A stretch of 52,765 nucleotides of DNA from a virus. Its lineage: Duplodnaviria; Caudoviricetes. Positions 18,260 to 37,274 of this stretch are shown here, piece after piece; position 1 is the first letter of the stretch, and every line of letters begins with the position of its first letter. Position numbers and translations under genes: made by a program. The stretch covers positions 1 to 52,765 of IMG/VR virus record IMGVR_UViG_3300009194_000002; one strand, given 5' to 3'. The notes under the pieces were generated by a model. It saw nothing but the letters and a program-made list of their open reading frames with translations. It did no database searches and was not told the DNA's origin.

Positions 18260-18272
18260 GGAGGTGTAATTA

Positions 18273-18458: not shown

Positions 18459-18469
18459 AGGTGTAAATA

Positions 18470-19987: not shown

Positions 19988-20093
19988 TAAGCTTAAAGGA
20001 AATAGAAAAATAGCAAAAGACAGCGGAAAAAGTAAAACAGCTGTAATAGCTTTAGGTAAGTTTTTATCTGGGGAAGACCTTAAAATTAAAGAG

Positions 20094-20402
20094 GTGGTTA
20101 CTATAGAAAAACTAAGAGGTCATAAAATAGAGCGTTTAAATGGTAAGTTTGTCTATTCAGATACTAAGGAACCTACTAAAAAAGGTTATTTTAAAAGGCC
20201 TTGTGGTAACTGTGGTAAGGACAGAACTAAAGAAGGTCACGACGGCTGTTTAGGTACCTTGCCAGGTGTAATGAACGCCTGCTGTGGCCATGGCGAAATA
20301 GACGAGTGTTATATACAATTTTTAGACGGTTCGGCGATTTATGGTAAAGAAGCTAAAATAGTTCAAGATATACTTAAGGACAGTAAAAGTTTAAGGCCTT
20401 AG
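20094..20402 (+). CDS. Cys/His-rich hypothetical protein (may extend upstream to 19984 via a frameshift)
   Basis: CGNCG..HDGCLGTLPGVMNACCGHG. Confidence 0.7.
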   Translation: MVTIEKLRGHKIERLNGKFVYSDTKEPTKKGYFKRPCGNCGKDRTKEGHDGCLGTLPGVMNACCGHGEIDECYIQFLDGSAIYGKEAKIVQDILKDSKSLRP

Positions 20403-20416
20403 AATGGAGGTTAATT

Positions 20417-20815
20417 ATGGAAGCTAAAGAAGATTACGCTTTTTTATGCCCTAATTGCTTTACAGATCACGACTTATATGAAGAAAATATTAATACTTTA
20501 AATAGACAAGACAGAGAAAATCCGTGGGTTTGTCATAACTGCGGCTGGGAAGGTAAGAAGGTAGAACTTTTAAAAGTAGATAAACAGTTAAGGATACTAG
20601 AAAAATTAGCTAAAAAGAGTATTACAGGTCTAGACAGAGATATAGAAAACTTAAGCAAGGTTTTAGATCTTTTAAATACCTACGTACTAAAAAGATCTGA
20701 AAGTTACAAAAATAATCTTGATTGTATAAAAGATTTTCGAGACCGACTAGATACTCTTATAGATAAGACTGACGATATTATTAACACAGCAAGAATAACA
20801 GGCGAAAAATATTAA
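20417..20815 (+). CDS. Zinc-ribbon plus coiled-coil protein
   Basis: CPNC and CHNCG; SD ggaggt. Confidence 0.7.
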   Translation: MEAKEDYAFLCPNCFTDHDLYEENINTLNRQDRENPWVCHNCGWEGKKVELLKVDKQLRILEKLAKKSITGLDRDIENLSKVLDLLNTYVLKRSESYKNNLDCIKDFRDRLDTLIDKTDDIINTARITGEKY

Positions 20816-20826
20816 AGGGTGGTATT

Positions 20827-21111
20827 ATGGTTAATTTCGACGTTCAATACTGGGACGAAAAAGTAAAGGATCAAGCAATTAAGGCTAAGGGTTTATGCAC
20901 AGAAGGTTATACTAAACATTATATAGGTCAAATGATATTTAATGTAGATCACGCTATAATGCACGGTAATTTAGCTAAGGCTTATTTACAGTCCCGGGCT
21001 GTAGCTGATGTATTAAATAAGGATCATTTTTATAAGGAAGTTTACGGGTCAATTGAAACAGAGGAAATTAAAGAACTTAAAAAATTAGGTAAAATGTTAG
21101 CTGATTTATAA
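20827..21111 (+). CDS. Hypothetical protein
   Basis: SD aaagggtgg. Confidence 0.7.
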   Translation: MVNFDVQYWDEKVKDQAIKAKGLCTEGYTKHYIGQMIFNVDHAIMHGNLAKAYLQSRAVADVLNKDHFYKEVYGSIETEEIKELKKLGKMLADL

Positions 21112-21129
21112 ACATTAAGGGGCGATATT

Positions 21130-21498
21130 ATGGATCCAAAAACTAAATTATTCGGGACTAAAGACCAGGTAAAAGACTATACGGGCGTCAGCGATTTTAC
21201 AGCTTTTTTCCTGTGGGAATGTCTTAAGAACGGATCTATGACAGATCAAGATATTATTAAGGCTGTAGAAAAAGATCCGACTACTGACGTCAGATTATGT
21301 TACGAAGCCTTACAGGATAAAAGAACAGACGCGGCTAAAATAGCAAAAGAGGAAACCAGGAAGGCTTATAAAAAGAGTAAAAGCTTAAGACGCCCTGGTA
21401 ACGGCAGTAAACCTTTTAAAGATAAAAGATACCCTAATTTATGTGAAAAAGTACCGGATCATTATAATAAAATATTTAATGGGAGGGGCAGACCATGA
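21130..21498 (+). CDS. Hypothetical protein
   Basis: SD aagggggcg. Confidence 0.7.
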   Translation: MDPKTKLFGTKDQVKDYTGVSDFTAFFLWECLKNGSMTDQDIIKAVEKDPTTDVRLCYEALQDKRTDAAKIAKEETRKAYKKSKSLRRPGNGSKPFKDKRYPNLCEKVPDHYNKIFNGRGRP

Positions 21499-22127
21499 AA
21501 AACTATCTAAATAAACACGAAAAGAACCAGGTTTTGACTATAGCTTCTTTTGTATCATTCTTTAACGACCTGGCCGATGAGTGGGAAAAATTAGACAGGG
21601 ACAGTAAACCTATAGGGAATATGAGAAGGGCCAGAACCCGCGCCCAGCGTGTATTAGATTACTTATTCGAAGAAATAGACGGGGAACAGAAAAAGAAGAT
21701 GGCCGAACAATTATCTAAAATGGAACTTGTAGTAAGATATAAGGATCAAGCGGCCAGGGAATACAAGAAAATGCAAAAGCTAGAGGACGTAACACCGGTA
21801 GATACTGATGATTTATTCGACATAGCTAACACGGCGCTTAACTACTGTATTAAAAAGTGTACTAACACCGGTAAAGAAGTCGAAAACTGTGTTAATAGGA
21901 AGCTATTTTTAAAATATGATATACCGGTCCTAGACGATAAAGCAAAAGCTGGAAAATGTCCGTACCAGTTTAAGAGTTTAAATAAGATCCGCGAGGAAAA
22001 CCAGAAAACAGATCTTATGATTAAGGAAATTACAGGTAAAACTGATCTAGATAAAAGAGAAGCTAAAAAGCTTCTAAAAAGGCTTAATTCAATTAGCGAG
22101 GTTAACGGGAAAATAAAAGAAGTATAA
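21495..22127 (+). CDS. Hypothetical phage protein (DUF5651-like)
   Basis: MKNYLNKHEK start and C-x3-C-x9-C..CPY cluster; family recalled from memory. Confidence 0.6.
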   Translation: MKNYLNKHEKNQVLTIASFVSFFNDLADEWEKLDRDSKPIGNMRRARTRAQRVLDYLFEEIDGEQKKKMAEQLSKMELVVRYKDQAAREYKKMQKLEDVTPVDTDDLFDIANTALNYCIKKCTNTGKEVENCVNRKLFLKYDIPVLDDKAKAGKCPYQFKSLNKIREENQKTDLMIKEITGKTDLDKREAKKLLKRLNSISEVNGKIKEV

Positions 22128-22138
22128 GGCGGGATAAA

Positions 22139-22258
22139 ATGCTACAGCGTTTTAAAGATAAATGCAGGGAGATTTACGACACTTATAATATAGAATTTAT
22201 AATAGCTATGTTAGTTTTAATAGCTTTCTGGGTAGGCTTCTTTTCTGCGATATTGTAA
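22139..22258 (+). CDS. Small membrane protein (39 aa)
   Basis: SD aaggcggg; hydrophobic FIIAMLVLIAFWVGFFSAIL. Confidence 0.6.
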   Translation: MLQRFKDKCREIYDTYNIEFIIAMLVLIAFWVGFFSAIL

Positions 22259-22321
22259 TACTTACTACCCCTATTATACACTAAATTACGGCAAAAATCT
22301 ATAATCGGAGGTTAATTAATA

Positions 22322-22966
22322 ATGAAAAATAATACCAGATTACAAAAAGCGGCTAACAAGTTTATGGATATAGCGGAGGAATTTAAAGTCGATATACTGC
22401 CTATGTCTTTAGGTAAAACCGGCGACGGACGGGACAGGGTAGGTTTAGGGATTGCTGACAGAGAAGGTGAAGGCGAAATTATACCTTTCCAGGATATTAA
22501 AAGAGATCCAGAATATAGAAGCGACCTTCCACCGGAAAACTGGGAAGAATTCTTAGAGATCCAGACAGAAGAATTTATTAGAAAAGATACTGATTACCGA
22601 CACAAATATACCCGAGGTTTATTAAAGCACGGTAAAATTATCTGGGAATGGGAAGTAGAAAAGAAATTAGATAGGATCAGAACCTGGATAGATCGCGGCG
22701 AGTTAACGGTAAAAGGCGAGGGTCTTAATAATGCAGTAGGTGACCTTTTTAACTATACTGTACTATACGAAATGTATAAGGACGCCGAGGACCGAGAAGA
22801 AGCCTTAGAAATGCTAAATAAAGCTACTTTTAAATGGTACGCTAACGCCTTTGAACCGGCAGAATGGGTAGATATGTTAGTTAAGGCTGGGCTTATTGAT
22901 CCAGACGAAACAATGGTAAAGGGTGTTATCTTTAAATTTATGGGCGTAGCTGATCTAAAAGCTTAA
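22322..22966 (+). CDS. Protein with a DUF1599/Nmad1-like all-alpha (MazG-like) domain
   Basis: FIRKDTDY..KKLDRI..DLFNY pattern. Confidence 0.5.
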   Translation: MKNNTRLQKAANKFMDIAEEFKVDILPMSLGKTGDGRDRVGLGIADREGEGEIIPFQDIKRDPEYRSDLPPENWEEFLEIQTEEFIRKDTDYRHKYTRGLLKHGKIIWEWEVEKKLDRIRTWIDRGELTVKGEGLNNAVGDLFNYTVLYEMYKDAEDREEALEMLNKATFKWYANAFEPAEWVDMLVKAGLIDPDETMVKGVIFKFMGVADLKA

Positions 22967-22986
22967 AACAGACTGGGGGCGACAGT

Positions 22987-23736
22987 ATGAATAAGCACAA
23001 AAAGGCTGAAATTTACTTTATAGCGGCCCTGGTAGTTACTTGTATATGTATTTATACACTAACGACTATTCTATGGCAAAGGGGGCCTAATTATGGGGCG
23101 ACAGGTACACAAAAGCTAGGACAGACAGAAAAAGGGCAGAGCAAAGGACAGACGGAAGCAGTTTTTAAGGAAGGAAAAGAAGTCAAAGGGGGTCGATCAA
23201 GTGGGCGTGGAAGAACTATCAAAACAGCTGGACCAGGTTTACAACAAGAACTTAAGTTTGAAGGCAGAGAACAAACAGCTGAAAAAGGAAAAGGAACGCT
23301 ACAAAAAAGCCTGGAAAGCGGAAAAGAGGTTAACAAAGGCGGAAGCAAAGAAAGTAGACACCTGGCGCCAGGAAGTAATAGCGCACCGGTTAGCGACGTC
23401 AATATTAACGATAATCGCGCTTTTATGGGTCTTTTTAAGATAACAGCTTACACAGCTGGGCCAGAAAGCACCGGAAAACGGCCCGGGGACCCTGCTTATG
23501 GTATTACAGCTTCTGGGGCTAAGGTTAGGCCAGAACACACTATAGCGGCCGACTGGGACGTACTACCGCCAGGAACTAAAGTCTATATCGAAGGTGTGGG
23601 CGAAAGAACAGTAACGGATAAAGGCGGGGCGGTAAAAGAAAAACATATAGATTTATACATACCGGAATTAGAGGACGCCCTTAACTGGGGCGTAAGACAC
23701 CGGGAAGTTTGGATAATTAAAAAGGGGGCTAATTAA
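22987..23736 (+). CDS. Membrane-anchored 3D-domain (MltA-like) peptidoglycan enzyme
   Basis: N-terminal TM helix; ITAYT..GITASG..IAAD..DKGG..IDLY. Confidence 0.85.
   Translation: MNKHKKAEIYFIAALVVTCICIYTLTTILWQRGPNYGATGTQKLGQTEKGQSKGQTEAVFKEGKEVKGGRSSGRGRTIKTAGPGLQQELKFEGREQTAEKGKGTLQKSLESGKEVNKGGSKESRHLAPGSNSAPVSDVNINDNRAFMGLFKITAYTAGPESTGKRPGDPAYGITASGAKVRPEHTIAADWDVLPPGTKVYIEGVGERTVTDKGGAVKEKHIDLYIPELEDALNWGVRHREVWIIKKGAN
23201..23443 (+). CDS. Overprinted coiled-coil protein with C-terminal TM helix, nested in the 3D gene
   Basis: GTG23201 preceded by the genome-typical SD aaagggggt; heptads followed by ILTIIALLWVFL. Confidence 0.55.
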   Translation: MGVEELSKQLDQVYNKNLSLKAENKQLKKEKERYKKAWKAEKRLTKAEAKKVDTWRQEVIAHRLATSILTIIALLWVFLR

Positions 23737-23739
23737 TTA

Positions 23740-24375
23740 ATGATGTATGTAGTTTATGGGATTACAGTAATAGCGGCAGTATTATTTGCAGGTTATCTGG
23801 GCGGCTTAAGGGCGGCCCAGATCTTAGAGGATCATAAGCAAAAGGAACATAAAAAGAAAGGTAGAAGCGGGCCTAAGTTACCGAACCACGTAAATTGCAG
23901 GTCTAAGCTACCGCCGGAATTTTACACAGTACTATTTGACAATAACTACAGCAAGGAAGATCTAGAAAAACTAGATAAAAAGTTAGAGGCAGGTCAATTT
24001 ATTATAACAGTACCTATTGATAAGAATGATCTTAAAGCTAGAATTGAAAACTTGGAGGATCGGCTGGAAGCTCATAAGATCGAAGCCAAAGGTAATTATG
24101 ACAGGCTCTTTAAATATGTAGACCATAATTTAGATAAAACAGAAACCCTTGTAAATAAGATTAATTCGGGACTAGATTTTGAAACTTTAAGTAAGATAGA
24201 AGAATTTACAGAACAGCTGATCGAGGAAAAGCCGCCGATCTGCAAACATAAGTACAAACAGCTGATTTTAGATTTTTACGGCGAAGAAGAATATAAAGAA
24301 GCCTGTATTTATGAAGTGCTTAAGGAAGGTAAGCTGGATATGGAGGAAGGGGCGCTTTGTTATGATGAAAGCTAA
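23740..24375 (+). CDS. Membrane-anchored hypothetical protein
   Basis: N-terminal TM helix; SD aagggggc. Confidence 0.7.
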   Translation: MMYVVYGITVIAAVLFAGYLGGLRAAQILEDHKQKEHKKKGRSGPKLPNHVNCRSKLPPEFYTVLFDNNYSKEDLEKLDKKLEAGQFIITVPIDKNDLKARIENLEDRLEAHKIEAKGNYDRLFKYVDHNLDKTETLVNKINSGLDFETLSKIEEFTEQLIEEKPPICKHKYKQLILDFYGEEEYKEACIYEVLKEGKLDMEEGALCYDES

Positions 24376-24994
24376 GTTACTTACTAACATAGGACCTTTA
24401 GAGTATAACTTCCCGGAAATGAAAACCCGGGAGGACGTCAGAACATATGTTAATAAAAAATTAAAAGGTGATAGGTTATTTCAATTTACAGACGGTAAGT
24501 TACTGGAAATATACGAGGATATGGAAATATTCGGCCTTGAAGTCTGGGAAGAAATCGAGGAAAATACTACAGCTGGGGAAGATCCTTTTAAGCCGCCGGC
24601 GCCTGGGCTGGATCTTAAAAAAGAGGAAAAATTCTTCCGCCGCGAAGGTAAAACTACTTATTTAGGTCACGATATAATTATTAAATTCCAGGGTTGTGTA
24701 GGACAGTATAAAATTTATTATCTGCCTGTATTTATTGAAACTGACAGAAATAAGGTAGAAGTTCGCCAGGATCTGGCCTTAAGTCCAGATAACCTAAAAT
24801 CAACCTTAAAAGACTGGGCCACAAGAAACTTAAAAGGCGAAACAGAAGAAATAGTAATCCCACCCGGCGAATTAGGCGGCTGGGAAGAAGCTAAGGAATA
24901 CTTAAAAGATTATGTAGAAACTGTAGAAGAAAGGATAGTCCCGGAGGAAAATAAAAACGCTAAAGCAGTCTACGGGCTAAGATCTAAGGAATAA
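24362..24994 (+). CDS. Hypothetical protein
   Basis: ATG24362/24365 after ggaggaagggg. Confidence 0.7.
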   Translation: MMKAKLLTNIGPLEYNFPEMKTREDVRTYVNKKLKGDRLFQFTDGKLLEIYEDMEIFGLEVWEEIEENTTAGEDPFKPPAPGLDLKKEEKFFRREGKTTYLGHDIIIKFQGCVGQYKIYYLPVFIETDRNKVEVRQDLALSPDNLKSTLKDWATRNLKGETEEIVIPPGELGGWEEAKEYLKDYVETVEERIVPEENKNAKAVYGLRSKE

Positions 24995-25007
24995 AGGCGG
25001 TGAAATT

Positions 25008-25427
25008 ATGAAAAGTTACGAGTTTAAAATTACAATAACTTATAGCGGCAACTTGCAATCTGAGAGTGAAAAAGAAGCTATAAGTAAGTTAAGTAAAGAT
25101 AACAGCAAAGACTTAAATTTTACAGATACTGACCGAAAAATAACGGTAAATAGAGTACTCACAGGCAAAGAAAAGCTGGAAAAGCAGTTATATCCTGGGA
25201 AAATACCCGAGGGTACAAGCAAAGAAGCTTTTATAGAGTTTGCAGTTAAGAACTTTAGTGAATTCGAGGTAGCTGACGCCCTGGATCTCACAGAATTAGC
25301 GATCAGAGGTTCCAGGCAAAGCTTATACACAGCTGAACAGTTTGGTAAAATACTTAAACACGCTCTTAAATCAGGGTTTAAACCAGAAGAAATTAGACAG
25401 GATATTTACAACGAGTATTTAAGATAA
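25008..25427 (+). CDS. Hypothetical protein
   Basis: SD aaggcggtg. Confidence 0.7.
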   Translation: MKSYEFKITITYSGNLQSESEKEAISKLSKDNSKDLNFTDTDRKITVNRVLTGKEKLEKQLYPGKIPEGTSKEAFIEFAVKNFSEFEVADALDLTELAIRGSRQSLYTAEQFGKILKHALKSGFKPEEIRQDIYNEYLR

Positions 25428-25457
25428 TTAACTAAATAACTTAAAAGGTGTGATTAT

Positions 25458-26048
25458 ATGGAAACTATAAAGATTAATAATATAGACTATAAGATCGAAG
25501 ATAGGGACTACTGGTTAAATAACGGCGATAATGTAAGCGCTATCCATATTAACAGGGGTTTACTATCTGTTTTAAGTGAACTGCCCGTACAGCGCTATAA
25601 TCGCTATTTAATGGAACTTGTAAGCAGGATCTTAATTTATGAAACTTTCTGGCCCGAAGATCCCGGGATAGATCACCAGCAGTTCGGTAATACGCTTTAC
25701 AGTTTTATGAGGTCTAATGAAGTTAGATCCTGGCTTCTAGAAGAAGATAACATACCTAATAGGGTAGTTATCAGAGATTTAGTTTACGATGTTATTATCA
25801 GCGAAAAGGGCGACCAGTTCCTGGACGCTACCGACTGTACAGGCCAGATCAAGCAAGGCCAGCTTAAGATCTTCATATTAAGCGGGATCCCAGAGCAGAG
25901 GAAAAAGGCTGTATTATTACACGAAATAACCCACGGCTTGCTACACGAAGCAGGGTTAGAGGATCACGACGACGATAAGATAGTAAGGCCGCTTACTAAT
26001 ATGCTTCATAACTTCTTTTTAGATAATGACTTTAGCTTTTTAAGGTAG
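25458..26048 (+). CDS. Zincin-like (HExxH) metallopeptidase-fold protein with an internal duplication
   Basis: LLHEITH in the second of two similar ~95-aa halves. Confidence 0.65.
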   Translation: METIKINNIDYKIEDRDYWLNNGDNVSAIHINRGLLSVLSELPVQRYNRYLMELVSRILIYETFWPEDPGIDHQQFGNTLYSFMRSNEVRSWLLEEDNIPNRVVIRDLVYDVIISEKGDQFLDATDCTGQIKQGQLKIFILSGIPEQRKKAVLLHEITHGLLHEAGLEDHDDDKIVRPLTNMLHNFFLDNDFSFLR

Positions 26049-26055
26049 GTGTAAA

Positions 26056-26208
26056 ATGGAAAATTCTGTAATAAGTAAGGAAGAAGCTTTAGAATTAATT
26101 AAAGAAAATAAGGTTAGATTAGTTAGTAAAATAGATCACGAAAAAGACGGCCAGGTAGATATTAAGTTTAGGATATATAAGCCAGAAAAGAAAGAAGGTA
26201 AACAATGA
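26056..26208 (+). CDS. Small hypothetical protein (50 aa)
   Basis: SD aaggtaggtg; ATGA overlap with the next gene. Confidence 0.6.
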   Translation: MENSVISKEEALELIKENKVRLVSKIDHEKDGQVDIKFRIYKPEKKEGKQ

Positions 26209-26393
26209 AAACTATAATTGCTGAATGTCCGGTAACTAAACTACCAGAAGGGAAAACTACTATAAGCTTAGATCCAGGTATAGAAAAGTTAGAGGGTAAG
26301 GACTGGCAGGATAGATATAAGATTAGCGGCACCAATGTTTTAGAAATAGACGACACCGCGTTAGTAAGGGTTAGTTTAGAGGAGGTAAGTTAA
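26205..26393 (+). CDS. Hypothetical protein
   Basis: Translationally coupled ORF. Confidence 0.65.
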   Translation: MKTIIAECPVTKLPEGKTTISLDPGIEKLEGKDWQDRYKISGTNVLEIDDTALVRVSLEEVS

Positions 26394-26914
26394 TGGATCA
26401 TATAAGACCTAAAGGTATGACAGAATTAATAAGGTTTGACTATACTTGTCTGTGTGGTAAAACATTCCCTACCGCAATAACAGGCGAAGGTATAAGCGTA
26501 GGTGATACAGGCGGGACAGTCTGCCCCAGCTGTGAAAGAGAACAAGTACTAGAAAAAGAGGAAATTAAATATATTATTAGATCAGTTAGTAAAGGTAAAC
26601 GTAAAAAAGAGCCAGAGGAAGCGTTTAGGTTCAATAATACAGCTTTGTTAGATAATAAGGTGTTTAAGTACGCTGATGTAACAGATTTACAGATTAAAGG
26701 TATAAAAGACGACCTGCGAATAAATTTATTTGCAGATATAGCAGAAACTTTAGAAGGATTAGACCAAGGTTACCCAGAAGATAAAAAGTATAAGAAGGAA
26801 ATGTATTTTATTAAGGTACAGCTGGAAGAACTCTACGATCACAGGGTCCAAAGCCACAGGAACGGGGCAGAATTTAATATCAACGCTAAACTAGAAACTT
26901 ACAGTATAAAGTAG
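26393..26914 (+). CDS. Zinc-ribbon-containing hypothetical protein
   Basis: CLCG and CPSC; SD gaggaggt. Confidence 0.7.
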   Translation: MDHIRPKGMTELIRFDYTCLCGKTFPTAITGEGISVGDTGGTVCPSCEREQVLEKEEIKYIIRSVSKGKRKKEPEEAFRFNNTALLDNKVFKYADVTDLQIKGIKDDLRINLFADIAETLEGLDQGYPEDKKYKKEMYFIKVQLEELYDHRVQSHRNGAEFNINAKLETYSIK

Positions 26915-26925
26915 AGGTGGTGTTT

Positions 26926-27447
26926 ATGGAAGCTACAGCCTATCAAGGTATGAGTATAGGCGGGAAAAGCGTTAATGAACGGATCAAGGAAGAAGTCTTA
27001 GATAAACAGCCCAGTATTGACGAAATGTTAGCCGCCGCTAATGATGATTTAGACGACTACGGTTCTAAGCTGGATAGACAGTATTTAAACGATAACGGAT
27101 ACTGGGAATACTTGCTGTGGCGGTATGAGAAGTCGGGAAGGTCATTAAGCTGGCGTGAAAAACTATTAAGTGAAGCGGTTAAATGGGGCCTATATTTATT
27201 AGGACTGAAAGGGGGTGATATTATGGCAGGTACAAATAAGGACGTTTTTACAGATAATCAGATTACTAAGTTAGCGCTGATCGGTGTTAATGAGATTATG
27301 GAAAACACAGACTTAGACGATAGAATGTATAAGGCTATGGCTAATTACGCTAAAAGAGAAATTCCAGGCCACGAGTTAGAACCTATCGTCGGTAAAATGT
27401 TTGTGGGTCTGGGGACTGAATTACAGAAACCAGAAACTACAGGCTAG
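26926..27447 (+). CDS. Hypothetical protein, with a probable second in-frame start at 27223
   Basis: SD gaggtgg before ATG26926; internal aaagggggtgatattATG. Confidence 0.65.
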   Translation: MEATAYQGMSIGGKSVNERIKEEVLDKQPSIDEMLAAANDDLDDYGSKLDRQYLNDNGYWEYLLWRYEKSGRSLSWREKLLSEAVKWGLYLLGLKGGDIMAGTNKDVFTDNQITKLALIGVNEIMENTDLDDRMYKAMANYAKREIPGHELEPIVGKMFVGLGTELQKPETTG

Positions 27448-27471
27448 AAAACTAAATAACTGGAACATAGT

Positions 27472-27516
27472 AAGTCGGGATCCCTGGAAAGATTAAAGCC
27501 AGGACCCGGCTTTTTT
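27472..27516 (+). terminator. Intrinsic terminator ending the early half
   Basis: AAGTCGGGATCCCTGG..CCAGGACCCGGC followed by TTTTTT. Confidence 0.8.
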
Positions 27517-27529
27517 AATTCCCTAAATC

Positions 27530-27833
27530 TTCCAGTTTTGAAATTCTTAAAATCAAGGTCTATAAGTACTAGTACTATTAACTATTAGTTATACTACTAC
27601 TATACTATAACTATTATTATATTATTATATTATATATAGTATTATTAGTATTAGTAGTAATTGGTTTTGGTTGTTGGTTTGTTTTTAAAAGCTGGGGAAG
27701 TAAAAGAAAAATAAAATAAAAAATATATAAGGTTGTGTCTAGGGGGGAGGGGGTTGTAATTTTTTAAAAAATAATTTCAGAAAAACTTTAGGTTAACCCC
27801 CCCTCCCTAAAATAATTATTATATATTTTTTCT
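27530..27833. other. Origin-like element copy B (direct repeat of 52631..52765 + 1..200)
   Basis: Same AT-rich core, ttggttttggttgttggttt and GGGGGGAGGGGGTT/AACCCCCCCTCCC inverted repeat as copy A. Confidence 0.55.
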
Positions 27834-27921
27834 GAAAACCCCTTTAGAGCGTAAATATATGGAAAATTCGAACAGTTTAAAGGGTTATTGCGGTTATTTG
27901 CTGTAAATTATTGAAATTTAT

Positions 27922-27930
27922 TGATATAAT
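27922..27930 (+). promoter_or_regulatory. Extended -10 promoter upstream of the packaging genes
   Basis: TGaTATAAT with no good -35 at 17 bp. Confidence 0.5.
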
Positions 27931-28146
27931 GGTAAATGAAGAAGTCTAGTTAGAAGTTTTACAGTTTTCTTTAATTCTTTATTTACAGTAAAGAAATCTG
28001 TAACTAATTACATATTTTTACATAATTTATTTAAAGAAGTAAAGAAGTTTTTATGAAATTCGCAAAACGTCCGTTCATATTTTTTGAATTGCGAATGTCC
28101 GAAAGGAAAATCATAGACTGCTAAGAAAGGGGGTCGCTACTCAAAT

Positions 28147-28899
28147 ATGGCAACATTTCCAAAAATTGACCTACCAAAAAATTACGATCCTCATGATCCA
28201 GAGTTAAAAAAGAAGCTGCACCCTAAAGCAGACGAGAAGAATTTAATCTTAGAAAGAAGTTACGGCCCTATCTTAGCTTGTGGGTCTAAAAAGAATAATG
28301 GCTGTAGAAATGTAGCTGGGAAAGGGACCGATCATTTAGGTTATGGTCGCTGTAAGTATCACGGTGGGAATAATACAGGCCCTAAAACTAAGAAGGGTAA
28401 AGCTAAATCTAGCCAGAACGCTAGGAAGCACGGCTTTTATTCTGACGCTTTACACGACGAGGAAGCCGAACTTTATAATGAGCTTTTAGAGAAAAAGGAC
28501 GAGATCCTAAGTTTACAGCACGAAATAACAGCGCTTAGGGCTAAGATAGTACTCTATCTAAAGAAATGGAAAGATAAATATAACCGACGCTATGAAGAAC
28601 AGCTTAAAGAAACTGGGGACGAAAAACAGGCCAGGGCTTACGCTGAACTTAAGACTAGAGTTAAATTTCAGCAGAAATCAGACGGGGGTTACAGTTATTA
28701 TACAGCTGGAACAATCGAGGATAACGCCTTAGATCGGGCCTTAAACACGTTAGCCCGGCTTATTGAAAAGCACGCCAGACTTACAGAGGATACGCCAGAC
28801 GATCTAGTTGGTAGAATTAATAGCGAATTAAGAGCCGCTAGCCAGGGCGAAGTTAATGTAAGCTGGGGATCTGGGCCACAAAAAAGGCAAGACAAGTAA
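28147..28899 (+). CDS. Terminase small subunit (HGGxSTG-type)
   Basis: CGSK..CRN..RCKYHGGNNTGPKT..NARKHGFYS; upstream of terL. Confidence 0.75.
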   Translation: MATFPKIDLPKNYDPHDPELKKKLHPKADEKNLILERSYGPILACGSKKNNGCRNVAGKGTDHLGYGRCKYHGGNNTGPKTKKGKAKSSQNARKHGFYSDALHDEEAELYNELLEKKDEILSLQHEITALRAKIVLYLKKWKDKYNRRYEEQLKETGDEKQARAYAELKTRVKFQQKSDGGYSYYTAGTIEDNALDRALNTLARLIEKHARLTEDTPDDLVGRINSELRAASQGEVNVSWGSGPQKRQDK

Positions 28900-28901
28900 A
28901 A

Positions 28902-28929
28902 ACTTCGTAAAATAAACGGTTTGCGAATA
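28902..28929. other. dif/Xer-like 11-6-11 imperfect palindrome
   Basis: ACTTCGTAAAA-TAAACG-GTTTGCGAATA. Confidence 0.3.
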
Positions 28930-28941
28930 TTTACATAAGAA

Positions 28942-29129
28942 AATTAGATAGAACTATAGATCAGATTAATTTCTTGTTTTACACAGTTAATTAGATAGAA
29001 CTATAGATCAGATTAATTTCTTATTCTACACAGCTAATTAGTTAAAACTATAGATCAGACTATTTTCTTATTCTACACAGCTAATTAGTTAAAACTATAG
29101 ATCAGACTATTTTCTTGTTTTACATAGGA
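28942..29129 (+). repeat. Four tandem copies of a 47-bp unit
   Basis: Units start at 28942, 28989, 29036 and 29083; consensus AATTAGwTArAACTATAGATCAGAyTAwTTTCTTrTTyTACAyAG. Confidence 0.95.
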
Positions 29130-29155
29130 AAATAGTTACGACTGGGGGCGATCTT

Positions 29156-29286
29156 ATGGCAGATCAGCAAAACCGACACTTAAAGAGGTTAAAGAGGCAC
29201 TAAAACGGGCTGGGCTAAACCCTGTAGATTATAAGCATTTACCTTATAAAAAGTTACTGCATTTAGCTGGGTATAATACAGAATGA
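29156..29286 (+). pseudogene. Small ORF interrupted by an apparent 1-nt frameshift
   Basis: SD gggggcg + ATG29156 stops at 29203; the -1 frame reads KPTLKEVKEALKRAGLNPVDY.. to TGA29286, overlapping the next ATG. Confidence 0.45.
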
Positions 29287-29459
29287 CCCGCAAGAATAAA
29301 GATCCTTGCCGTGGTTGTGTTTGCTACAGCTGTAGAAAGTCCAGCCGCCACGGGGTAATACAAGCTTGCCCCCGCTGTAATGAGTGTAACGGTATTAAAC
29401 TACAGATTTGTAGGAAGTCGGCCCCTACAGAAGAAAAGGGGGTACCTTTCGAATGGTAG
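29283..29459 (+). CDS. Small Cys-rich protein (58 aa, 8 Cys)
   Basis: CRGCVCYSC..CPRCNEC..C; overlaps the terL start. Confidence 0.6.
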   Translation: MTRKNKDPCRGCVCYSCRKSSRHGVIQACPRCNECNGIKLQICRKSAPTEEKGVPFEW

Positions 29460-31147
29460 ATACTGACGGAAACCTGGCCTATAAGACAGACTTTGATTAT
29501 AAAGAGGATATAGACCCGATTAGTGGGGCGCCTAAATTGGTGGCCGTCCCGAAAACAGCTAAAGCGGCCAGGGAAGGTGTGCCTTATAATACTATTAATG
29601 ATTTAGGTGATCTTTTTAAGCGTGAAAACTTAAGGGAAGCCTGGCGCGTATTCCGGAAGAATGATCCGTTTGATTACCAGGTAGAAATAGCTGACGCTAT
29701 TATATACAGCTGTGTACAGGGCTTAGGCTGGCAGTTTGTGGTATTAATGACCCGCCAGGCAGGAAAGAACGAAACTTCTGCCTTTATACAGCAGTACTTA
29801 TTATTATACGGCTGGTACTTTGGGGAACAGGTAAGCGGCGTTAAGTTTGCGCCGGTACATAAACCACAGGTACAGGCTTCTATGGATCGCCTGGAAGGTG
29901 CGCCTACTAAAGATAGCGGCGGCCTGGCCGGATCAGTAGTTACACGGCAGTTATGGTCTAAGTCTGACGGCTTTAAGTACCATATCGGACCGCCGCGGGA
30001 CAGTAACAAATGGACCTTTTTATCTATTAACCCGACTGCTAACGTAGCTTCCCAGACTGCTTTTACGCTTTTAGAAGGTGACGAAGCCCAGGACATAGAC
30101 CGGGATAAGTGGGAACGCGACGCCCAGCCTATGGCTTCTTTCAATAATGCGACTACCGTATTCTGGGGCGTAGCCTGGACGAAAGACTGTTTTATCTATG
30201 AAGCGATCCAGCAGTCCTACGATATGGAAGAAAGGCTAGCTAAAAAACTGGATATAGGAAGGCCGAAGCTTGTTTTTAAGGTAGACGCTGACCGAGTTAA
30301 GCAGGTTAATGATAATTACCGGAAGGCTTACGAAAACCAGGTAGCGCGTTTAGGTGAAGATCATATCGCTATACAGACACAGTATAAATTAAACTTTGTT
30401 GACAGTATAGGTCGCTTTTTTAGTGACGAGAACGTGGCCCGAATGTATGCTAATAACTATCGTATGCGGGTAGGTCCGGAAAAAGGAAAGACTTACATAT
30501 TCAGTACTGATGTAGCGGGCCAGGAAGAAAACCCGACTGATCTAAAAGATTTTACAGCTGGAAAAGACAAGCGAGATAGTACGGCTTTAATTATCGGGGA
30601 ATTACAGAATGACGGGACAGTAGTTCCGGTTTGCTTGTATCATTGGACCGGGGAAAAGCACACAAGGCAAAGAGAAACTATAAAAAAGATTTTAAAACAT
30701 TGGAACGTAATAGGCGGCGTCTGTGACGCTACAGGGATCGGGGAACCCTTGGCTTATTACCTAATAGAAGAATTCCCGAGATTGGATATTATACCGTACA
30801 AGTTTAAGGCTAACGGGGACGAGAATAAATCAAAGCTGGGATATTTAGCTTATAATTATAACAGCCTTGATCTTATTAAGATCCCGGGACAGCCTACAGG
30901 GGAAGGTAACAAAAGGGCCGCGGAATTATGGAAAGAGCTTCGCTGGCAGATTAAGCACTTAATTAGAGAAGCGAAGAAAAAACAGCAGATTAACTGGCAC
31001 GTGCCGCAAAACGCGACGCCGAGATATGAAGGCCACGTACCACACGACGACTTAGTTACAGCACTATTTTTATTATTGCACGGCGCCTTTAATATTAAGG
31101 GCGGCCAGTACGGTGTAAGTATCCCAGACAGACGAGATCTTATTTAG
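29453..31147 (+). CDS. Terminase large subunit
   Basis: YQ motif, TRQAGKN Walker A, EGDEAQ Walker B, STDVAG, DATGIG and HDD nuclease motifs. Confidence 0.9.
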   Translation: MVDTDGNLAYKTDFDYKEDIDPISGAPKLVAVPKTAKAAREGVPYNTINDLGDLFKRENLREAWRVFRKNDPFDYQVEIADAIIYSCVQGLGWQFVVLMTRQAGKNETSAFIQQYLLLYGWYFGEQVSGVKFAPVHKPQVQASMDRLEGAPTKDSGGLAGSVVTRQLWSKSDGFKYHIGPPRDSNKWTFLSINPTANVASQTAFTLLEGDEAQDIDRDKWERDAQPMASFNNATTVFWGVAWTKDCFIYEAIQQSYDMEERLAKKLDIGRPKLVFKVDADRVKQVNDNYRKAYENQVARLGEDHIAIQTQYKLNFVDSIGRFFSDENVARMYANNYRMRVGPEKGKTYIFSTDVAGQEENPTDLKDFTAGKDKRDSTALIIGELQNDGTVVPVCLYHWTGEKHTRQRETIKKILKHWNVIGGVCDATGIGEPLAYYLIEEFPRLDIIPYKFKANGDENKSKLGYLAYNYNSLDLIKIPGQPTGEGNKRAAELWKELRWQIKHLIREAKKKQQINWHVPQNATPRYEGHVPHDDLVTALFLLLHGAFNIKGGQYGVSIPDRRDLI

Positions 31148-31161
31148 AAAGGGGCTAACGT

Positions 31162-32754
31162 ATGGCAGTAACGACATCAGTACCGATTTTATTGTCAGAT
31201 CTACCAGAGGATACGGGACTAGAACAAGAAGTAGCAGAAGCCTGGGGCCAGAAGAACGGCCGCTGGATCGGAAAAATTTTAGATCAGCACGACGCCTGGC
31301 TTAGAGAAAATAACATAGAAGAATACCAGAAAGCTTATGACGGTTACATAGAAGAAATAGAAAAACGCGACAAAGATCGCGGCGACGGTATTAATAATAA
31401 ACTGATAGCTAATTACGCCCAGCTTATTGTAGATACGGTTGTCGATTATATGATAGCCCAGGCTCCAACATTTAAAGTAGAGGACCCGGTCCAGGTAGAA
31501 GATCCGGAAGCTGACGAAGCGGATATAGTAAAAGAATACCGGCAGGTTATTAAAGATTACTTAGGAACAACTAAAGCGCACCGAATACTCAAAGAACAGC
31601 TTACACAGGGTTCTTTAGCCGCCTACAGCTGTATAATTCATTGGATCGAGCCGGACGGGACCATAGATTTTGAAGAATATCCGGTCCAGGAAGTAATACC
31701 AGTCTATAATACTAAGAATAGACGGGCTTTAGTGCTTAGGGCTTACGATATAGAAGTCCCGGTAGATAGTGAAGCCGGTATTAAGCTAGAAACCCGTAAA
31801 AGGGTCGAAGTTTACGACGATAAATACGTAACCTGGTACATATCCGATAAAACAGGTAAGAAATTCGAACTTGAAGACGTGGAGGAAGGTAAAAACAACC
31901 CTTTCCCACACTACGCCGGCAGGATCCCGGTAAGTATCTTCAATAACGGAAAACCTGCTAATTATAAGGACAGGCTTAAGAATGTAGGAAAGTCTGATCT
32001 TTCAAACGGTGCTTACAGCCTTATTAAAGACATATCACACAAGTTAAGTGATAAATCTAACCTGGCCGAGTACTTAATGGATCAGTATTTACTGCTTAAG
32101 GGTGTAGATACCGACGAAGAAGAAGTACAGAAAATGAGAAAAGCCAGAGCCTTAGCTTTAAAGAATTCCGATAGTGACGCGGCGTTTATTAGCCAGGACC
32201 AGGACGACACGACCACTAAAAACTATATGGATCGTCTTGTTAACACCTTACACGATACAACCTTCACACCTAATTTAAGTAACTTAGAGGGTAAGACGGC
32301 CTACGAAATTAAAATGAAGTTCGCTAACCTGGATATTAAAGCAGGTAAAAAAGAGATCTATTTCATAGAAGCTATTATGGAAACTGTGGCTATAATCACG
32401 GATCTACTTAACGCTGACAAGTTAAAAGAAGCTGGAATAGCCGAAGAAGAAATACACAGTATCCTAGCCGGGAAAACTGAAACAGAAGTAGAGTTATATA
32501 AGTCAGAATGGGTAAGCCCTAGTCTGACCCGGAATATCCCGCAGGACTATCAAGCAGTATCTACTATAGTAGCAACGCTGGCTGGAAAAGTACCAGATAA
32601 ATACTTATATGAGCTGTTATGGTTTGTAGACGATCCTAAAAAAGCCCTGGCTGAAATGAAAGAACAGCGTAAAGAAAAGCTAGAGGAAAATATGGGCGCT
32701 ATGGGCTTCGGTAATGAGTTTACAGACTTAGAAGGTCAGAATACGGAAGAATAG
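31162..32754 (+). CDS. Portal protein, SPP1 gp6-like
   Basis: NNKLIANYAQLIVDTVVDY; 530 aa; follows terL. Confidence 0.9.
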   Translation: MAVTTSVPILLSDLPEDTGLEQEVAEAWGQKNGRWIGKILDQHDAWLRENNIEEYQKAYDGYIEEIEKRDKDRGDGINNKLIANYAQLIVDTVVDYMIAQAPTFKVEDPVQVEDPEADEADIVKEYRQVIKDYLGTTKAHRILKEQLTQGSLAAYSCIIHWIEPDGTIDFEEYPVQEVIPVYNTKNRRALVLRAYDIEVPVDSEAGIKLETRKRVEVYDDKYVTWYISDKTGKKFELEDVEEGKNNPFPHYAGRIPVSIFNNGKPANYKDRLKNVGKSDLSNGAYSLIKDISHKLSDKSNLAEYLMDQYLLLKGVDTDEEEVQKMRKARALALKNSDSDAAFISQDQDDTTTKNYMDRLVNTLHDTTFTPNLSNLEGKTAYEIKMKFANLDIKAGKKEIYFIEAIMETVAIITDLLNADKLKEAGIAEEEIHSILAGKTETEVELYKSEWVSPSLTRNIPQDYQAVSTIVATLAGKVPDKYLYELLWFVDDPKKALAEMKEQRKEKLEENMGAMGFGNEFTDLEGQNTEE

Positions 32755-32765
32755 GGGGCTAAGAT

Positions 32766-34643
32766 ATGGCGGATATAAGCGATCGGGTCCTTAAACGTCG
32801 GCAGAAAGATCTGTCGGACTTCGTAGAGAAATACCAGGACCAGTTAGATAAGTCCGCCGGTCAATATGCTAAAGAAATGGTCCCGATCTGGAAAAGGCTT
32901 AAAGACAGAGCAAAAAGTAAAACAAAGTCTATATATAAACAGGTTGGCGCTTTAGACGATCCGAAAAAGATAACTAACCTAATGCGGCAGGGCGATAGAA
33001 TGGACGCCCTGGCTAATAGTCTAGCCGCTGATATTAAGCGCGTAGAAAATAAGCTACAGCCTTATTACAGCGCTAATATAGGTTATGAGTTCGAGAAAAG
33101 CTACTATAGTCATTTATTCGGAATGGAACAAGCGGCTAAGATTAGCGTAAATACGCCTATGTTATCTATGGAACGTATTTTAGGCGTACTTGCTAACCCC
33201 TGGCTTGATGACGGGGGTAATTATTCGGATAGATTACGGGCTAATACAGCTTTATTAGCTAGTAAAATGAAAGATACTATTAACGATATGGTAGTAGAAG
33301 GTTGGGGCTGGAATGAAGCGGCCCGAAGGCTGGGACAGATAACTGATGAAGGCTATTTTAATGCGGTACGGCTTATAAGAACCGAAGCTAACAGAGCCGC
33401 GGCTTTAGGAGCTAGTTATTCATATATGGAAAACGCCGACGTATTAGACGGGAAACGCTGGAACGCTACCTTAGACGCCAGAACAGCGCCGAAGGACGCT
33501 AAAAACGACGGCAAGCTTTACGATTTAGACTATGATACGCCCGAAAATGCTGGAATAGCAGGTCAGCGGATCCCGAACCACCCGAATTGCCGCTGTAAAT
33601 GGTCGCCTGTTTTATCTGCCCTGGGTGTAAGTGAAAAAGAACGTATAGCCAGGGGTAACGGTGACGGTCCGGATCAATTCGGGGAAAGAACATATACTAA
33701 AGCCCGTACATATGAAGAATATGCGAAAGAACGCGGCTTACCTAGTTTAGATAAAAGGTTAGAGGTCGATAACCCGAAAAGTTACTTAAGACCGGGGGAA
33801 ACTATAGCAGATCTTAATAAAAAAGTAGGTAGATATACAGTAAATGGTAAAAGTATTGTAATATCTAAGAACGCTTTTAATAAACTTGCAGAAGAAACCG
33901 CAGAAGCTTCTACAGCCGGTACTTTTACGCCGGCCAGCACTTTAGCGGAAGCTAAAAGAGAAGCACGTAAAACTTTTAAAAAAGTGGATCTAAACGGGGT
34001 AACTTTAGATCAGCTTAATGAGATTAACAGAGGTATAGCCGCAGGTAGAAACGGTTTGCCGCTTGAAATAGATAACCTTGACTGGATACCTGCTAATAAA
34101 AATCGAGGGACTTCTGGTCTTGTAACTCATTCAAAAAAAGACCCTACAAAAATGCCTAGAATGAGTTTTAGAAAGTTGCATATTAGAAACCCAGAAAATT
34201 ATATTAAAAAACAGCAAAGAAATTATAAGTATAGTCGTAGAAAGGTACTTGAAAAGCTGGAAAAACAAGCTAATGATAGCCGGCGTCCTGATTGGTTGTT
34301 AGAACAGAATAGAGAAAAGCTGGCTAAAGCTAAAGAAGTAGTCCGCTGGTCTACTCATACAGATGTAGAAGCTGATGATTTTATTTATACTTTAACCACT
34401 CACGAAACAGGACATGGTATATATAATTATAACGGCCTTGCTGATACCTGGGAAGACGCCTTAGAGAAATTTGCAGTAAAGGAAGTAGATAGACTTAAGC
34501 TTTCTGAATACGGGGCCAGCAGTAGTTCAGAATTATTTGCAGAAACTAACGCTATGGTAGCGCTTGATCGTAAGGCTGACGTACCAGAAACTATTTTAAA
34601 AGCCTACGAGGAAACCATTAACAGCGTTAAGGGAGGTACATAA
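32766..34643 (+). CDS. MuF/SPP1 gp7-like minor head protein with a C-terminal HExxH metallopeptidase-like (toxin) domain
   Basis: RLIRTE, WNATLDART and HPNCRC (MuF); THETGH..LSEYG..SELFAE in the extension. Confidence 0.85.
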   Translation: MADISDRVLKRRQKDLSDFVEKYQDQLDKSAGQYAKEMVPIWKRLKDRAKSKTKSIYKQVGALDDPKKITNLMRQGDRMDALANSLAADIKRVENKLQPYYSANIGYEFEKSYYSHLFGMEQAAKISVNTPMLSMERILGVLANPWLDDGGNYSDRLRANTALLASKMKDTINDMVVEGWGWNEAARRLGQITDEGYFNAVRLIRTEANRAAALGASYSYMENADVLDGKRWNATLDARTAPKDAKNDGKLYDLDYDTPENAGIAGQRIPNHPNCRCKWSPVLSALGVSEKERIARGNGDGPDQFGERTYTKARTYEEYAKERGLPSLDKRLEVDNPKSYLRPGETIADLNKKVGRYTVNGKSIVISKNAFNKLAEETAEASTAGTFTPASTLAEAKREARKTFKKVDLNGVTLDQLNEINRGIAAGRNGLPLEIDNLDWIPANKNRGTSGLVTHSKKDPTKMPRMSFRKLHIRNPENYIKKQQRNYKYSRRKVLEKLEKQANDSRRPDWLLEQNREKLAKAKEVVRWSTHTDVEADDFIYTLTTHETGHGIYNYNGLADTWEDALEKFAVKEVDRLKLSEYGASSSSELFAETNAMVALDRKADVPETILKAYEETINSVKGGT

Positions 34644-34810
34644 TGGAAACTGTTTATTGTATGACCTGTAAACATTATAACGGACTACAGACTTGTGACG
34701 CTTTTAAAGATAAAATACCACAGGACATATTTACGGGCCTTAGAAATCACGAAGAACCTGTAGAGGGTGATAACGGTATTACTTACGAACCTATAGAAAC
34801 AAGCGGCTAG
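34643..34810 (+). CDS. Small Cys/His protein (55 aa), candidate immunity/partner of the MuF toxin
   Basis: TAATG overlap with muF, SD gggaggt; CMTCKH..CDAF..IP..H..P..GDNGITYEP. Confidence 0.7.
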   Translation: METVYCMTCKHYNGLQTCDAFKDKIPQDIFTGLRNHEEPVEGDNGITYEPIETSG

Positions 34811-34842
34811 TTATTACCTGGCCGCCTTAATATAGATTTATG

Positions 34843-34946
34843 GCCGACGGGCCTTTATAAACGGTCAATCATAAAATTATTAAATATTATTTTACGGTAC
34901 GGGGACCGGATAACCCCGGAATAATGAGCCGACGGGCCAAAAACGG
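34843..34946 (+). promoter_or_regulatory. Duplicated leader motif upstream of the scaffold gene
   Basis: GCCGACGGGCC-N(2-5)-AAACGG at 34843..34864 and 34928..34946. Confidence 0.55.
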
Positions 34947-34963
34947 AAAGGGGATATAATAAA

Positions 34964-35710
34964 ATGGAAGAACTTAAATTGCTTAAAGCTAAGTACGAAA
35001 ACGGAAAGATCAAAAGGGAAGAATACTTAAAACAGCTGGATCAGCTACTAAATGACGAAAATATATCGCAGGAGGAACACGACGAAGCTAAAGAATACGA
35101 CCCGGAACAAGGCGAAACTTTAATTTACAGTCAAAGCGATGTAAATAGGATCGTTAAGGGGCGCGCCCTTCGCGAAATCAGAAAGTATTTACGTAATGCC
35201 GGGGTAGAAGACGTAGACGATTTAGCAGACGGCGAAATAGAAGATAAAGTAGTCGAACTTGTTACAGTTGGGGCAGAAGCCGGCGAAGTAACACCGGACG
35301 ATAAGGAACTTAAAAGGCTGAAAGATAAGGCCGCTAAAGCAGATCAGCTGGAAGCTACTATAGATAGACTTAGTGTAGAAAATGGGGTCTATAAAGTGGC
35401 TAGTAAGTACAAACCTTATGATACTAAGCAAGTAGTACGCGCCTTAACTACTGATTATTCTGATCTCTTAGAATATGAAGACGGTAACCTGGTAGAAGGT
35501 TCCGTCGAAAAAGCAGTGGAAAGGGTAGTTAAAGCAGAACCTAACCTATTCCCAGACGAAGAAGGTAGCGGAAAGGACGACGACACCGGCGACGATAAAA
35601 AGTTTAAAAGCGGCGGACCCGGTGGGGGCGGCGGCAAAGGTAACGATAATGACCGCAAAAAGAAAGTAAATAGTGCCTTAGAGAAAATGGGTTTTAAAAA
35701 AGACGAGTAA
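34964..35710 (+). CDS. Capsid scaffolding protein
   Basis: Acidic coiled coil, EPNLF motif, Gly-rich linker; position before the capsid genes. Confidence 0.75.
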   Translation: MEELKLLKAKYENGKIKREEYLKQLDQLLNDENISQEEHDEAKEYDPEQGETLIYSQSDVNRIVKGRALREIRKYLRNAGVEDVDDLADGEIEDKVVELVTVGAEAGEVTPDDKELKRLKDKAAKADQLEATIDRLSVENGVYKVASKYKPYDTKQVVRALTTDYSDLLEYEDGNLVEGSVEKAVERVVKAEPNLFPDEEGSGKDDDTGDDKKFKSGGPGGGGGKGNDNDRKKKVNSALEKMGFKKDE

Positions 35711-35739
35711 AGTAAGATCAATTTAAGGGGGAATAAATA

Positions 35740-36129: not shown

Positions 36130-36184
36130 TAGATACCGGTATTAAAATTTCACAGCCGGGAAATAACTTAAGGGGGAATAAATA

Positions 36185-37207: not shown

Positions 37208-37224
37208 ACTAATTAACTAATGTA

Positions 37225-37250
37225 ACCAGGGTCTAATTATAGGCCCTGGT
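37225..37250 (+). terminator. Hairpin after the major capsid gene (attenuator or stability element)
   Basis: ACCAGGGTCTA-loop-TAGGCCCTGGT, no T-run. Confidence 0.5.
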
Positions 37251-37274
37251 AAATCACAAGGAGGTATTAGCTAA

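Follow-up and report, generated by a model that had tools for sequence, protein, structure and literature searches.

Phage SPP1 carries two similar replication origins, oriL and oriR, each of which combines repeats for an origin-binding protein with an AT-rich unwinding element (PMC6316719), and its second origin has been proposed to stall forks and thereby to lead to recombination-dependent concatemer synthesis involving a resolvase and an exonuclease (PMC6316719; PMC3485210). Archaeal origins combine an AT-rich unwinding stretch with inverted elements that bear G-runs, and are used by a helicase of the MCM family (PMC4010727). Here we analyze a twin non-coding element in the genome of a Bacillus-type tailed phage (Caudoviricetes), IMG/VR record IMGVR_UViG_3300009194_000002, whose 52,765 nucleotides (nt) are referred to as the window throughout. 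The two copies of the element, A and B, separate a half of the genome with replication genes from a half with virion genes, and the phage encodes a fusion of an AEP primase with an MCM helicase (AEP-MCM). We read the two elements as a matched pair of replication origins, or as one origin with a second initiator-bound site, for a replisome built on AEP-MCM and PolA, and consider this reading about equally likely to be right or wrong.

Anatomy and conservation of the twin element

Because the ends of the window share an exact overlap of 31 nt (positions 52735-52765 repeat positions 1-31), we treat it as a circle of 52,734 bp. A preliminary description of this DNA had reported a non-coding element of about 260-300 bp that occurs twice in direct orientation, at distances of about 27.6 and 25.1 kb. 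Both copies were found at the places it gave, each about 270 bp long, with start-to-start distances of 27,620-27,634 and 25,103-25,108 nt. Their identity over shared blocks is 79-97% (repeat finder, self-BLAST and genome search). Copy A spans the assembly junction; closing the window into a circle makes it colinear with copy B, from the terminator through to the last T-run. The two copies and the signals around them are made up as follows.

52596-52627, + strand: terminator-like hairpin with T-run at the end of the lysis/late operon, read directly from the sequence, just upstream of copy A
52631-52765: left part of copy A, with the TTCCAGC arm (52631-52637) and the left two thirds of the A/T core
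1-84: middle of copy A, with the right third of the A/T core, the G/T-rich 20-mer (41-60) and the AAAAGCTGG arm (67-75)
85-196: 112-bp module of copy A with two diverging half-sites, reading ...ATATATAA, spacer, G-run (108-119), variable spacer of 43 nt, C-run (163-173), spacer, TTATATATTTTTT (185-197)
216-244, + strand: sigma-70-type early promoter after copy A (TTGACT, 17 nt, TATAAT), preceding the first early open reading frame (ORF) at 236-823
27495-27520, + strand: terminator-like hairpin with T-run upstream of copy B, after the last early/middle ORF (26917-27447)
27530-27718: copy B, with the TTCCAG arm (27530-27535), the A/T core (about 27561-27660), the G/T-rich 20-mer (27662-27681) and the AAAAGCTGG arm (27687-27695)
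27719-27833: 112-bp module of copy B with two diverging half-sites, with G-run (27742-27753), variable spacer, C-run (27797-27807) and TTATATATTTTTT (27819-27831)

In both copies the terminator hairpin is followed by the TTCCAG(C/T) arm, the A/T core, the G/T-rich 20-mer, the AAAAGCTGG arm and a long inverted repeat (85-196 in copy A, 27719-27830 in copy B). This is the order given in the preliminary description, and every part that it listed was found twice except the promoter, which follows copy A (11/12 match to the sigma-70 consensus) but not copy B, where the best matches reach at most 9/12, the chance level. The observation that loops differ while arms and core are kept held up: the spacer from G-run to C-run diverges between the copies, and arms and core are retained. 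The reported core pattern, with C on the left and G on the right, amounts to a weak palindrome that is 77% identical to its own reverse complement. The TTCCAG arm is present in both copies, but the arm word CTTCCAGC (TTCCAGC arm) is nonspecific, with 10 occurrences in the window versus about one expected, mostly within genes.

Rfam covariance models, applied at the gathering score to both strands of the whole window, gave no matches. No DnaA box with up to one mismatch lies inside either element, and the genome-wide count of 12 is not above the 9.5 expected by chance. Two perfect DnaA-box-like 9-mers, 32 nt apart (4288-4296 and 4320-4328), are located within the sbcC-like gene.

Relatives were collected via AEP-MCM. 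They comprise the Bacillus phages phBC6A51, PHBA67-T and vB_BboS-125 (about 64% identity) and 27 IMG/VR loci, which came from an alignment of three AEP-MCM sequences; a query with a single protein gave no relatives. Eight genomes were studied in full: the window, five IMG/VR records (G001-G005), vB_BboS-125 (50 of its 58.5 kb) and phBC6A51. A search of related phages for the paired element, suggested in the preliminary description, found two copies in all eight. Since the pair is also present in vB_BboS-125, a clonal isolate sequenced with PacBio technology (PMC6375668), the duplication is not a metagenome artefact; together with its presence in the RefSeq prophage phBC6A51, this disposes of the assembly error that the preliminary description had allowed for.

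All these copies follow one plan. Outward from the A/T core of about 100-130 bp lie an inner half-site, a spacer of about 40-55 nt that is T-rich beside the G-run, and an outer half-site, both half-sites being on the same side of the core. Read 5' to 3' away from the spacer, each 32-bp half-site consists of a TACCCCCC-like run, about 16 variable bases and then TTATATAT. Run and TATATAT box are separated by a practically constant distance among phages of 40-55% G+C, and in 15 copies the module spans 109-122 bp between its outer ends (about 112 bp). Upstream of the inner half-site is an A-tract, and its box is usually preceded by ATACC; the outer half-site ends in a T-run. In one copy of G003 the TATATAT boxes have decayed and the C-runs are kept.

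The half-site pattern is found 1-5 times per genome versus 0-0.15 expected, nearly always within the elements; the off-element matches in the eight genomes are one stray in G001 and a weak one in phBC6A51 that is the ribosome-binding site of a gene. Of 21 further IMG/VR relatives, 20 contain the pattern, the sole miss being a 36%-complete fragment, and a reversed control pattern had no matches in any of the 21. Two half-site clusters 25-33 kb apart were seen in 13 of the 15 records that are at least 90% complete. Finally, a strict search of all IMG/VR for the whole module, blind to proteins, returned 17 stretches, four of them in known relatives and 13 on new contigs. Five of the new contigs were checked for AEP-MCM: both that are at least 90% complete encode it (62% identity), and it was not found in three fragments that are 45-62% complete. 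Judged from these searches, the half-site pattern is a specific marker for the clade in metagenomes, and the conservation of the pair across the clade supports the view that the element is a selected cis-acting DNA site. Plain DNA searches are of little use here: copy B had no blastn match in 50,697 phage records because the elements are too diverged, the G/T-rich 20-mer had five matches in IMG/VR, all to unrelated contigs (blastn, tblastx), and an exact 38-mer of the right arm had none in IMG/VR.

Location is as regular as structure. One copy is always just upstream of the packaging genes, either at 0.6-0.9 kb from terS or immediately ahead of a small ArpU-like gene. The second is placed between the lysis genes and the early genes that follow, and in the temperate phBC6A51 it is found 110 nt before a serine-recombinase gene. 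The early-side copy has the same orientation in all eight genomes (core, module, then genes). Relative to it, the packaging-side copy is direct in three genomes and inverted in five, with gene order colinear throughout, and this freedom fits a bidirectional site that acts at the DNA level. The near-antipodal placement noted for the window extends to its relatives, the larger arc covering 50-58% of the genome in the seven measurable cases, which are related and not independent.

The gene of about 128 codons right after the packaging-side copy in relatives (vB_BboS-125 40346-40735, phBC6A51 28714-29094, and G001-G005) encodes a protein whose C-terminal half looks like a helix-turn-helix (HTH) or sigma-region-4-like domain, and it looks ArpU-like by position. 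A tblastn search did not find it in the window, which has about 310 nt of non-coding DNA ahead of terS in its place.

Meltable cores and the replication module

The two cores rank first and second for lowest duplex stability among all 100-bp segments in each of the eight genomes, according to nearest-neighbour energies. Core energies are -86 to -94 kcal/mol versus genome means of -127 to -147, and the third-ranking segment reaches -99 to -119. In the phage studied here, the core of copy A is the least stable segment (position 4936 of the rotated genome, 52670 of the window) and that of copy B the second least stable (32561 and 27561, respectively). Such a melting profile is what a DNA-unwinding element looks like.

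The cores are also imperfect palindromes. Single-strand folds with z <= -2 were obtained for the cores of 9 of 16 copies and for the modules of 11 of 16, and z is about 0 for the cores of the window, so a hairpin or cruciform was rejected as the main feature there. The pentamers TACTA/TAGTA make up 40% (58/146) of isolated C/G core pentamers versus 14% when the same flanks surround A/T, a modest excess that was not used as evidence.

Every ORF of the window, whatever its length, is on the + strand. The half from about 0.2 to 27.5 kb contains small early genes and genes for a split SbcC-like ATPase, an SbcD-like nuclease, a Holliday-junction resolvase, a UvsW-type helicase, the AEP-MCM fusion, a family-A polymerase and a dCTP deaminase. 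The half from 27.8 to 52.6 kb contains terS, terL, the virion genes and an amidase endolysin. Protein-family scans covered 40 of the 74 ORFs of the window, and the following genes matter most for the argument.

3339-18259, + strand: replication/recombination module (split SbcC, SbcD, resolvase, UvsW-like helicase, gp32-like protein, AEP-MCM, PolA)
12655-15780, + strand: AEP primase-MCM helicase fusion of 1041 amino acids (Pfam DNA_primase_S, DNA_primase_lrg, MCM; phrog_18685)
51462-52199, + strand: endolysin gene (Amidase_3), followed by an ORF at 52199-52573, both upstream of the copy A terminator

The SbcC-like ATPase is divided into an N-terminal gene for 528 amino acids (3339-4925) and a C-terminal gene for 245 (5597-6334), with two small ORFs between them; the same split arrangement appears in the annotations of phBC6A51 and vB_BboS-125.

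Comparison with phBC6A51 separates the two halves. What it has in common with the window is limited to the ORFs at 3339-18259 (sbcC to polA), a 27% tape-measure match and one regulator, and at E <= 1e-5 no terS, terL, portal, capsid or tail gene is shared. Despite its different virion module, phBC6A51 keeps both copies of the element. This pattern supports the view that the pair is inherited with the AEP-MCM replication module and not with the virion module. Only ten proteins are common to all eight genomes, all of them replication or recombination proteins, and any phage protein that reads the half-sites would therefore be one of these ten.

Among the ten, the best candidate for a half-site binder is AEP-MCM, which is 59-66% identical in relatives. 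Its C-terminal region of about 100 residues is modelled as three helices and a beta-hairpin and may act as a winged-helix-like reader of the half-sites; C-terminal winged-helix domains of AEP-helicase fusions have been proposed as origin recognisers (PMC5862659). Other proteins were considered as initiators. A double-HTH protein (10996-11544) was rejected since it is not conserved in relatives, and a 255-residue protein (11863-12630), which adjoins AEP-MCM and is conserved, looks instead like a gp32-type single-stranded-DNA-binding protein (weak matches, E 0.02-0.08). A 193-residue protein (8209-8790) gave a weak UvsY-like lead (score 0.85).

As a pair of origins, the two elements would operate through their A/T cores as DNA-unwinding elements. 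A sequence-specific protein of the replication module, with AEP-MCM as the best candidate, would bind the two diverging bipartite half-sites symmetrically; its binding would melt the neighbouring core and let the helicase-primase load, priming would follow, and both copies may fire. Because the inner half-site has a promoter-like geometry and an upstream A-tract and points into the core, it may also drive RNA into the core and so help opening or priming. The earlier proposal of two near-antipodal origins is partly supported, on the side of the site itself, which is conserved, meltable, near-antipodal and co-inherited with the AEP-MCM module.

Several observations weigh against the origin reading. 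The cumulative GC skew of the window is monotonic, without a turning point, and so gives no direct sign of initiation; GC skew is positive all along, and is uninformative on origins because all genes are on one strand. The cores of the window show no excess hairpin stability over shuffled sequences. Unlike archaeal and herpesvirus origins, which have recognition elements on both sides, the element has its recognition module at a single side of the core. The winged-helix DNA binders that are the best fold matches of the AEP-MCM C-terminus are weak hits (E 0.09-0.4, none <= 0.001). In G001 no terminator precedes the packaging-side copy, which may consequently be transcribed through. The half-sites have a -35/-10-like geometry and, in relatives, only 10-40 nt separate the element, whichever way it is turned, from the start of the first gene downstream, which leaves room for a purely transcriptional role.

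In such a role the element would be a transcription-control module placed at the starts of two operons. Its half-sites would be phage-specific promoters or operators, used by host RNA polymerase with a phage factor that sits on the C-run at -35; the A/T core would be upstream or insulating DNA, and the two copies would time early and late expression. We consider this unlikely, while giving it real weight, and it is compatible with a promoter-primed origin. The fixed spacing of C-run and TATATAT, near to -35/-10 geometry, speaks for it together with the A-tract just upstream of the inner half-site, and so does the placement of both copies between operons, ahead of the packaging genes and of the early genes (in phBC6A51, the recombinase gene). 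Moreover, the ArpU-like gene of relatives is so close to the element in either orientation that, barring read-through, its promoter must lie in the element. In a simple sigma-70 scan the outer half-site scores 9/12 in both copies, with the C-run in the place of the -35 box and a conserved -10-like box and spacing; however, 9/12 is the chance level and a C-run is far from the sigma-A -35 hexamer. The motif occurs only in the two elements and is absent ahead of other operons, the inner half-site is directed into non-coding DNA and against all genes, and a canonical sigma-70-type promoter of its own comes after the early-side copy. In addition, the window keeps both copies without an ArpU-like gene, no transcription factor is common to all eight genomes, and transcriptional control leaves unexplained the top ranking of the two cores for meltability in every genome.

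The early promoter after copy A has a near copy at 1163-1191. A conserved word, ...GAAGTAAAGAA / TTCTTTACTTC..., overlaps the -35 region of early promoters (window 206-245 and 1153-1192; vB_BboS-125 9790-9826 and 16643-16679) and recurs inverted just before terS in both phages (window 28009-28053; vB_BboS-125 40885-40921). It may be the operator of a shared regulator.

A further alternative to an origin pair places the true origin outside the twin element, for example in the 47-bp tandem repeats (2950-3044 and 28942-29135). The twin element would then play no part in replication and be a selfish or structural repeat, either similar to a miniature inverted-repeat transposable element (MITE) or a nucleoid-protein site. 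The 47-bp unit is repeated about 4.5 times in tandem at 28942-29135 (+ strand), between terS and a small ORF/terL. About two inverted units at 2950-3044 (- strand) directly follow an XRE-type HTH gene (2496-2777) and precede promoter-like sites (3026-3054 and 3137-3165) as well as the sbcC-like gene. Within each unit, TTTACA and TATAGA stand 17-18 nt apart, as in a promoter, and the units may serve as operators or iterons or belong to a pac site. That iteron-like units stand beside the replication genes and, inverted, beside terL counts against placing the origins in the twin element, and phage origins are often in or beside replication genes, as with SPP1 oriL inside gene 38 (PMC6316719). On the other hand, self-BLAST of five relatives revealed no equivalent pair of 47-bp repeats, and a related strain in other sequencing runs appears to have a single unit (loose contig ends at 29017 and 29079). 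Across the clade the twin element keeps its place and its structure, unlike a recently mobile repeat. An origin elsewhere is thus very improbable in our judgement.

Possible exchange of genome halves

The preliminary description had offered a second interpretation, in which the copies are recombination joints that let the genome resolve into two sub-circles or let phages swap whole halves. In a fuller form of this idea, the elements would be hot spots processed by the SbcCD-like nuclease, the resolvase and the helicase, where recombination-dependent replication starts and half-genomes are exchanged; members with direct copies could yield half-genome circles. The phage has genes for such enzymes (SbcC/SbcD-like proteins, a resolvase, a UvsW-like helicase), and palindromic cores with stable folds in about half of the copies would suit such processing, although those of the window do not fold in this way. 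Copies within a genome are also more alike than copies from different genomes (0.74 versus 0.58 for cores, 0.80 versus 0.69 for modules), which points to gene conversion between them, and phBC6A51 and the window share one half only, with the elements kept at the module borders.

The inverted arrangement in five of the eight genomes speaks against this reading. No relative with an inverted half was seen, and resolution into sub-circles is ruled out as a conserved function. Recombination would not require strictly spaced half-sites, and neither an integrase nor another site-specific recombinase was identified among the 40 of 74 window ORFs scanned. The boundary of the swap between phBC6A51 and vB_BboS-125 lies beyond the ArpU-like gene that they share and not exactly at the element. 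Overall, we find it improbable that recombination is what the elements are for. The swapping of halves between phages fares better as an observation than as a purpose: it fits the mosaic pattern, and is more likely a consequence of conserved sites.

The contigs of one sequencing run (X1), which may be the source of the record, gave no joints. Their one loose end at 27833 continues with the sequence that flanks copy A, which is expected because the copies share a 37-mer; contigs are blind to hybrid junctions across repeats that exceed the word size. In this run, the two halves (~3197-27603 and 30766-~52717) fall on different Logan contigs, whose mean word depths are 67.5 and 110.7, respectively; the depth is 100.2 for piece 27804-28971, 148.1 for piece 29087-30795 and 7.3 for a 149-nt unitig specific to copy B. 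These depths are one figure per contig and not copy numbers. The unequal depths of the halves may come, among other causes, from mixed strains with a common virion half, from a bias in composition, from a gradient of packaging or replication, or from half-genome molecules. Three subsurface metagenome runs (X2-X4) contain, over 18000-37900, a related phage that is 90-99% alike in pieces and has gene-sized replacements at 18278-18608, 18938-19499, 20812-21116 and 25027-26361. The early half is therefore mosaic between close strains.

Origin function and exchange might be joined in a single scheme. One polypeptide, AEP-MCM with its winged-helix-like domain, would recognise the pair of G-run/TATATAT sites, melt the core, load itself and prime at two copies kept alike by gene conversion, and the same pair would be the joint for module exchange and shed half-genome circles in members with direct copies. 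We regard this combination as doubtful. It would represent a eukaryotic-virus or archaeal style of origin in a bacteriophage clade, an equally tentative proposition.

Comparison with known systems

We found no description of the element pair in the literature searched. The main text of the vB_BboS-125 genome paper (PMC6375668) contains neither "origin" nor "palindrom", and no origin is named in the accessible parts of the publications on BcMCM, the protein of phBC6A51. BcMCM is a biochemically studied MCM of a bacterial virus, with helicase, primase and polymerase activities, so that a sharply defined candidate origin (core plus 112-bp module) makes AEP-MCM targeting testable with proteins and phages in hand. 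The pair is also a clean case of two near-antipodal cis elements that evolve in concert and whose relative orientation flips between relatives. Finally, its location at the borders of exchanged genome modules bears on how phage mosaicism arises.

By analogy, the element may work like the origins of SPP1 or of archaea. SPP1 is a lytic Bacillus siphovirus and resembles this clade in that all its genes are on one strand and its genome has two similar origin sequences, one of them in an intergenic gap of the late region. The likeness drawn here is one of organisation. Sites in SPP1 are direct repeats, whereas here they form a diverging pair of bipartite half-sites; its oriL is inside a gene and its origins are about 13 kb apart, whereas here both copies are intergenic and near-antipodal. 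SPP1 relies on gp38, a DnaB-type helicase and host polymerases. This clade has AEP-MCM and its own PolA, and its module holds these and a UvsW-like helicase in place of the SPP1-type replication set, with no search having been aimed at a gp38 homologue.

The archaeal arrangement differs in that inverted recognition elements flank the unwinding region beside an orc1/cdc6 gene (ORB-DUE-ORB, with DUE for DNA-unwinding element), whereas both half-sites are on one side here. No Orc1/Cdc6-like gene was identified among the 40 of 74 window ORFs scanned. BcMCM is without the MCM N-terminal domain, and double hexamers were not seen in the work reported in the accessible text of its characterisation (PMC3273815).

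Two other phages offer partial parallels to the clade, in the wiring of the promoter-like half-site and in the make-up of the initiator. At oriF and oriG of phage T4, a promoter fires into a downstream unwinding element and the resulting R-loop primes the leading strand. Here, similarly, a promoter-like site with an unusual -35 region points into an A/T stretch, and T4 also has several origins per genome. The phage has T4-like functions (UvsW-like, gp46/47-like and gp32-like proteins and a resolvase), but its replisome families differ from those of T4, and no factor of the MotA/AsiA type was identified in it. In satellite phage P4, the alpha protein is a primase-helicase with a C-terminal origin-binding domain, and ori and crr contain the same recognition repeats. 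P4 and this clade are thus alike in having one multifunctional primase-helicase and two separate cis regions; they are unlike in that alpha is of another primase and helicase type, ori and crr are a few kb apart, and P4 is not known to have a large A/T palindromic core. Among all these, oriL and oriR of SPP1 are the nearest documented case, and the twin element is a member of neither the SPP1 nor the archaeal origin family.

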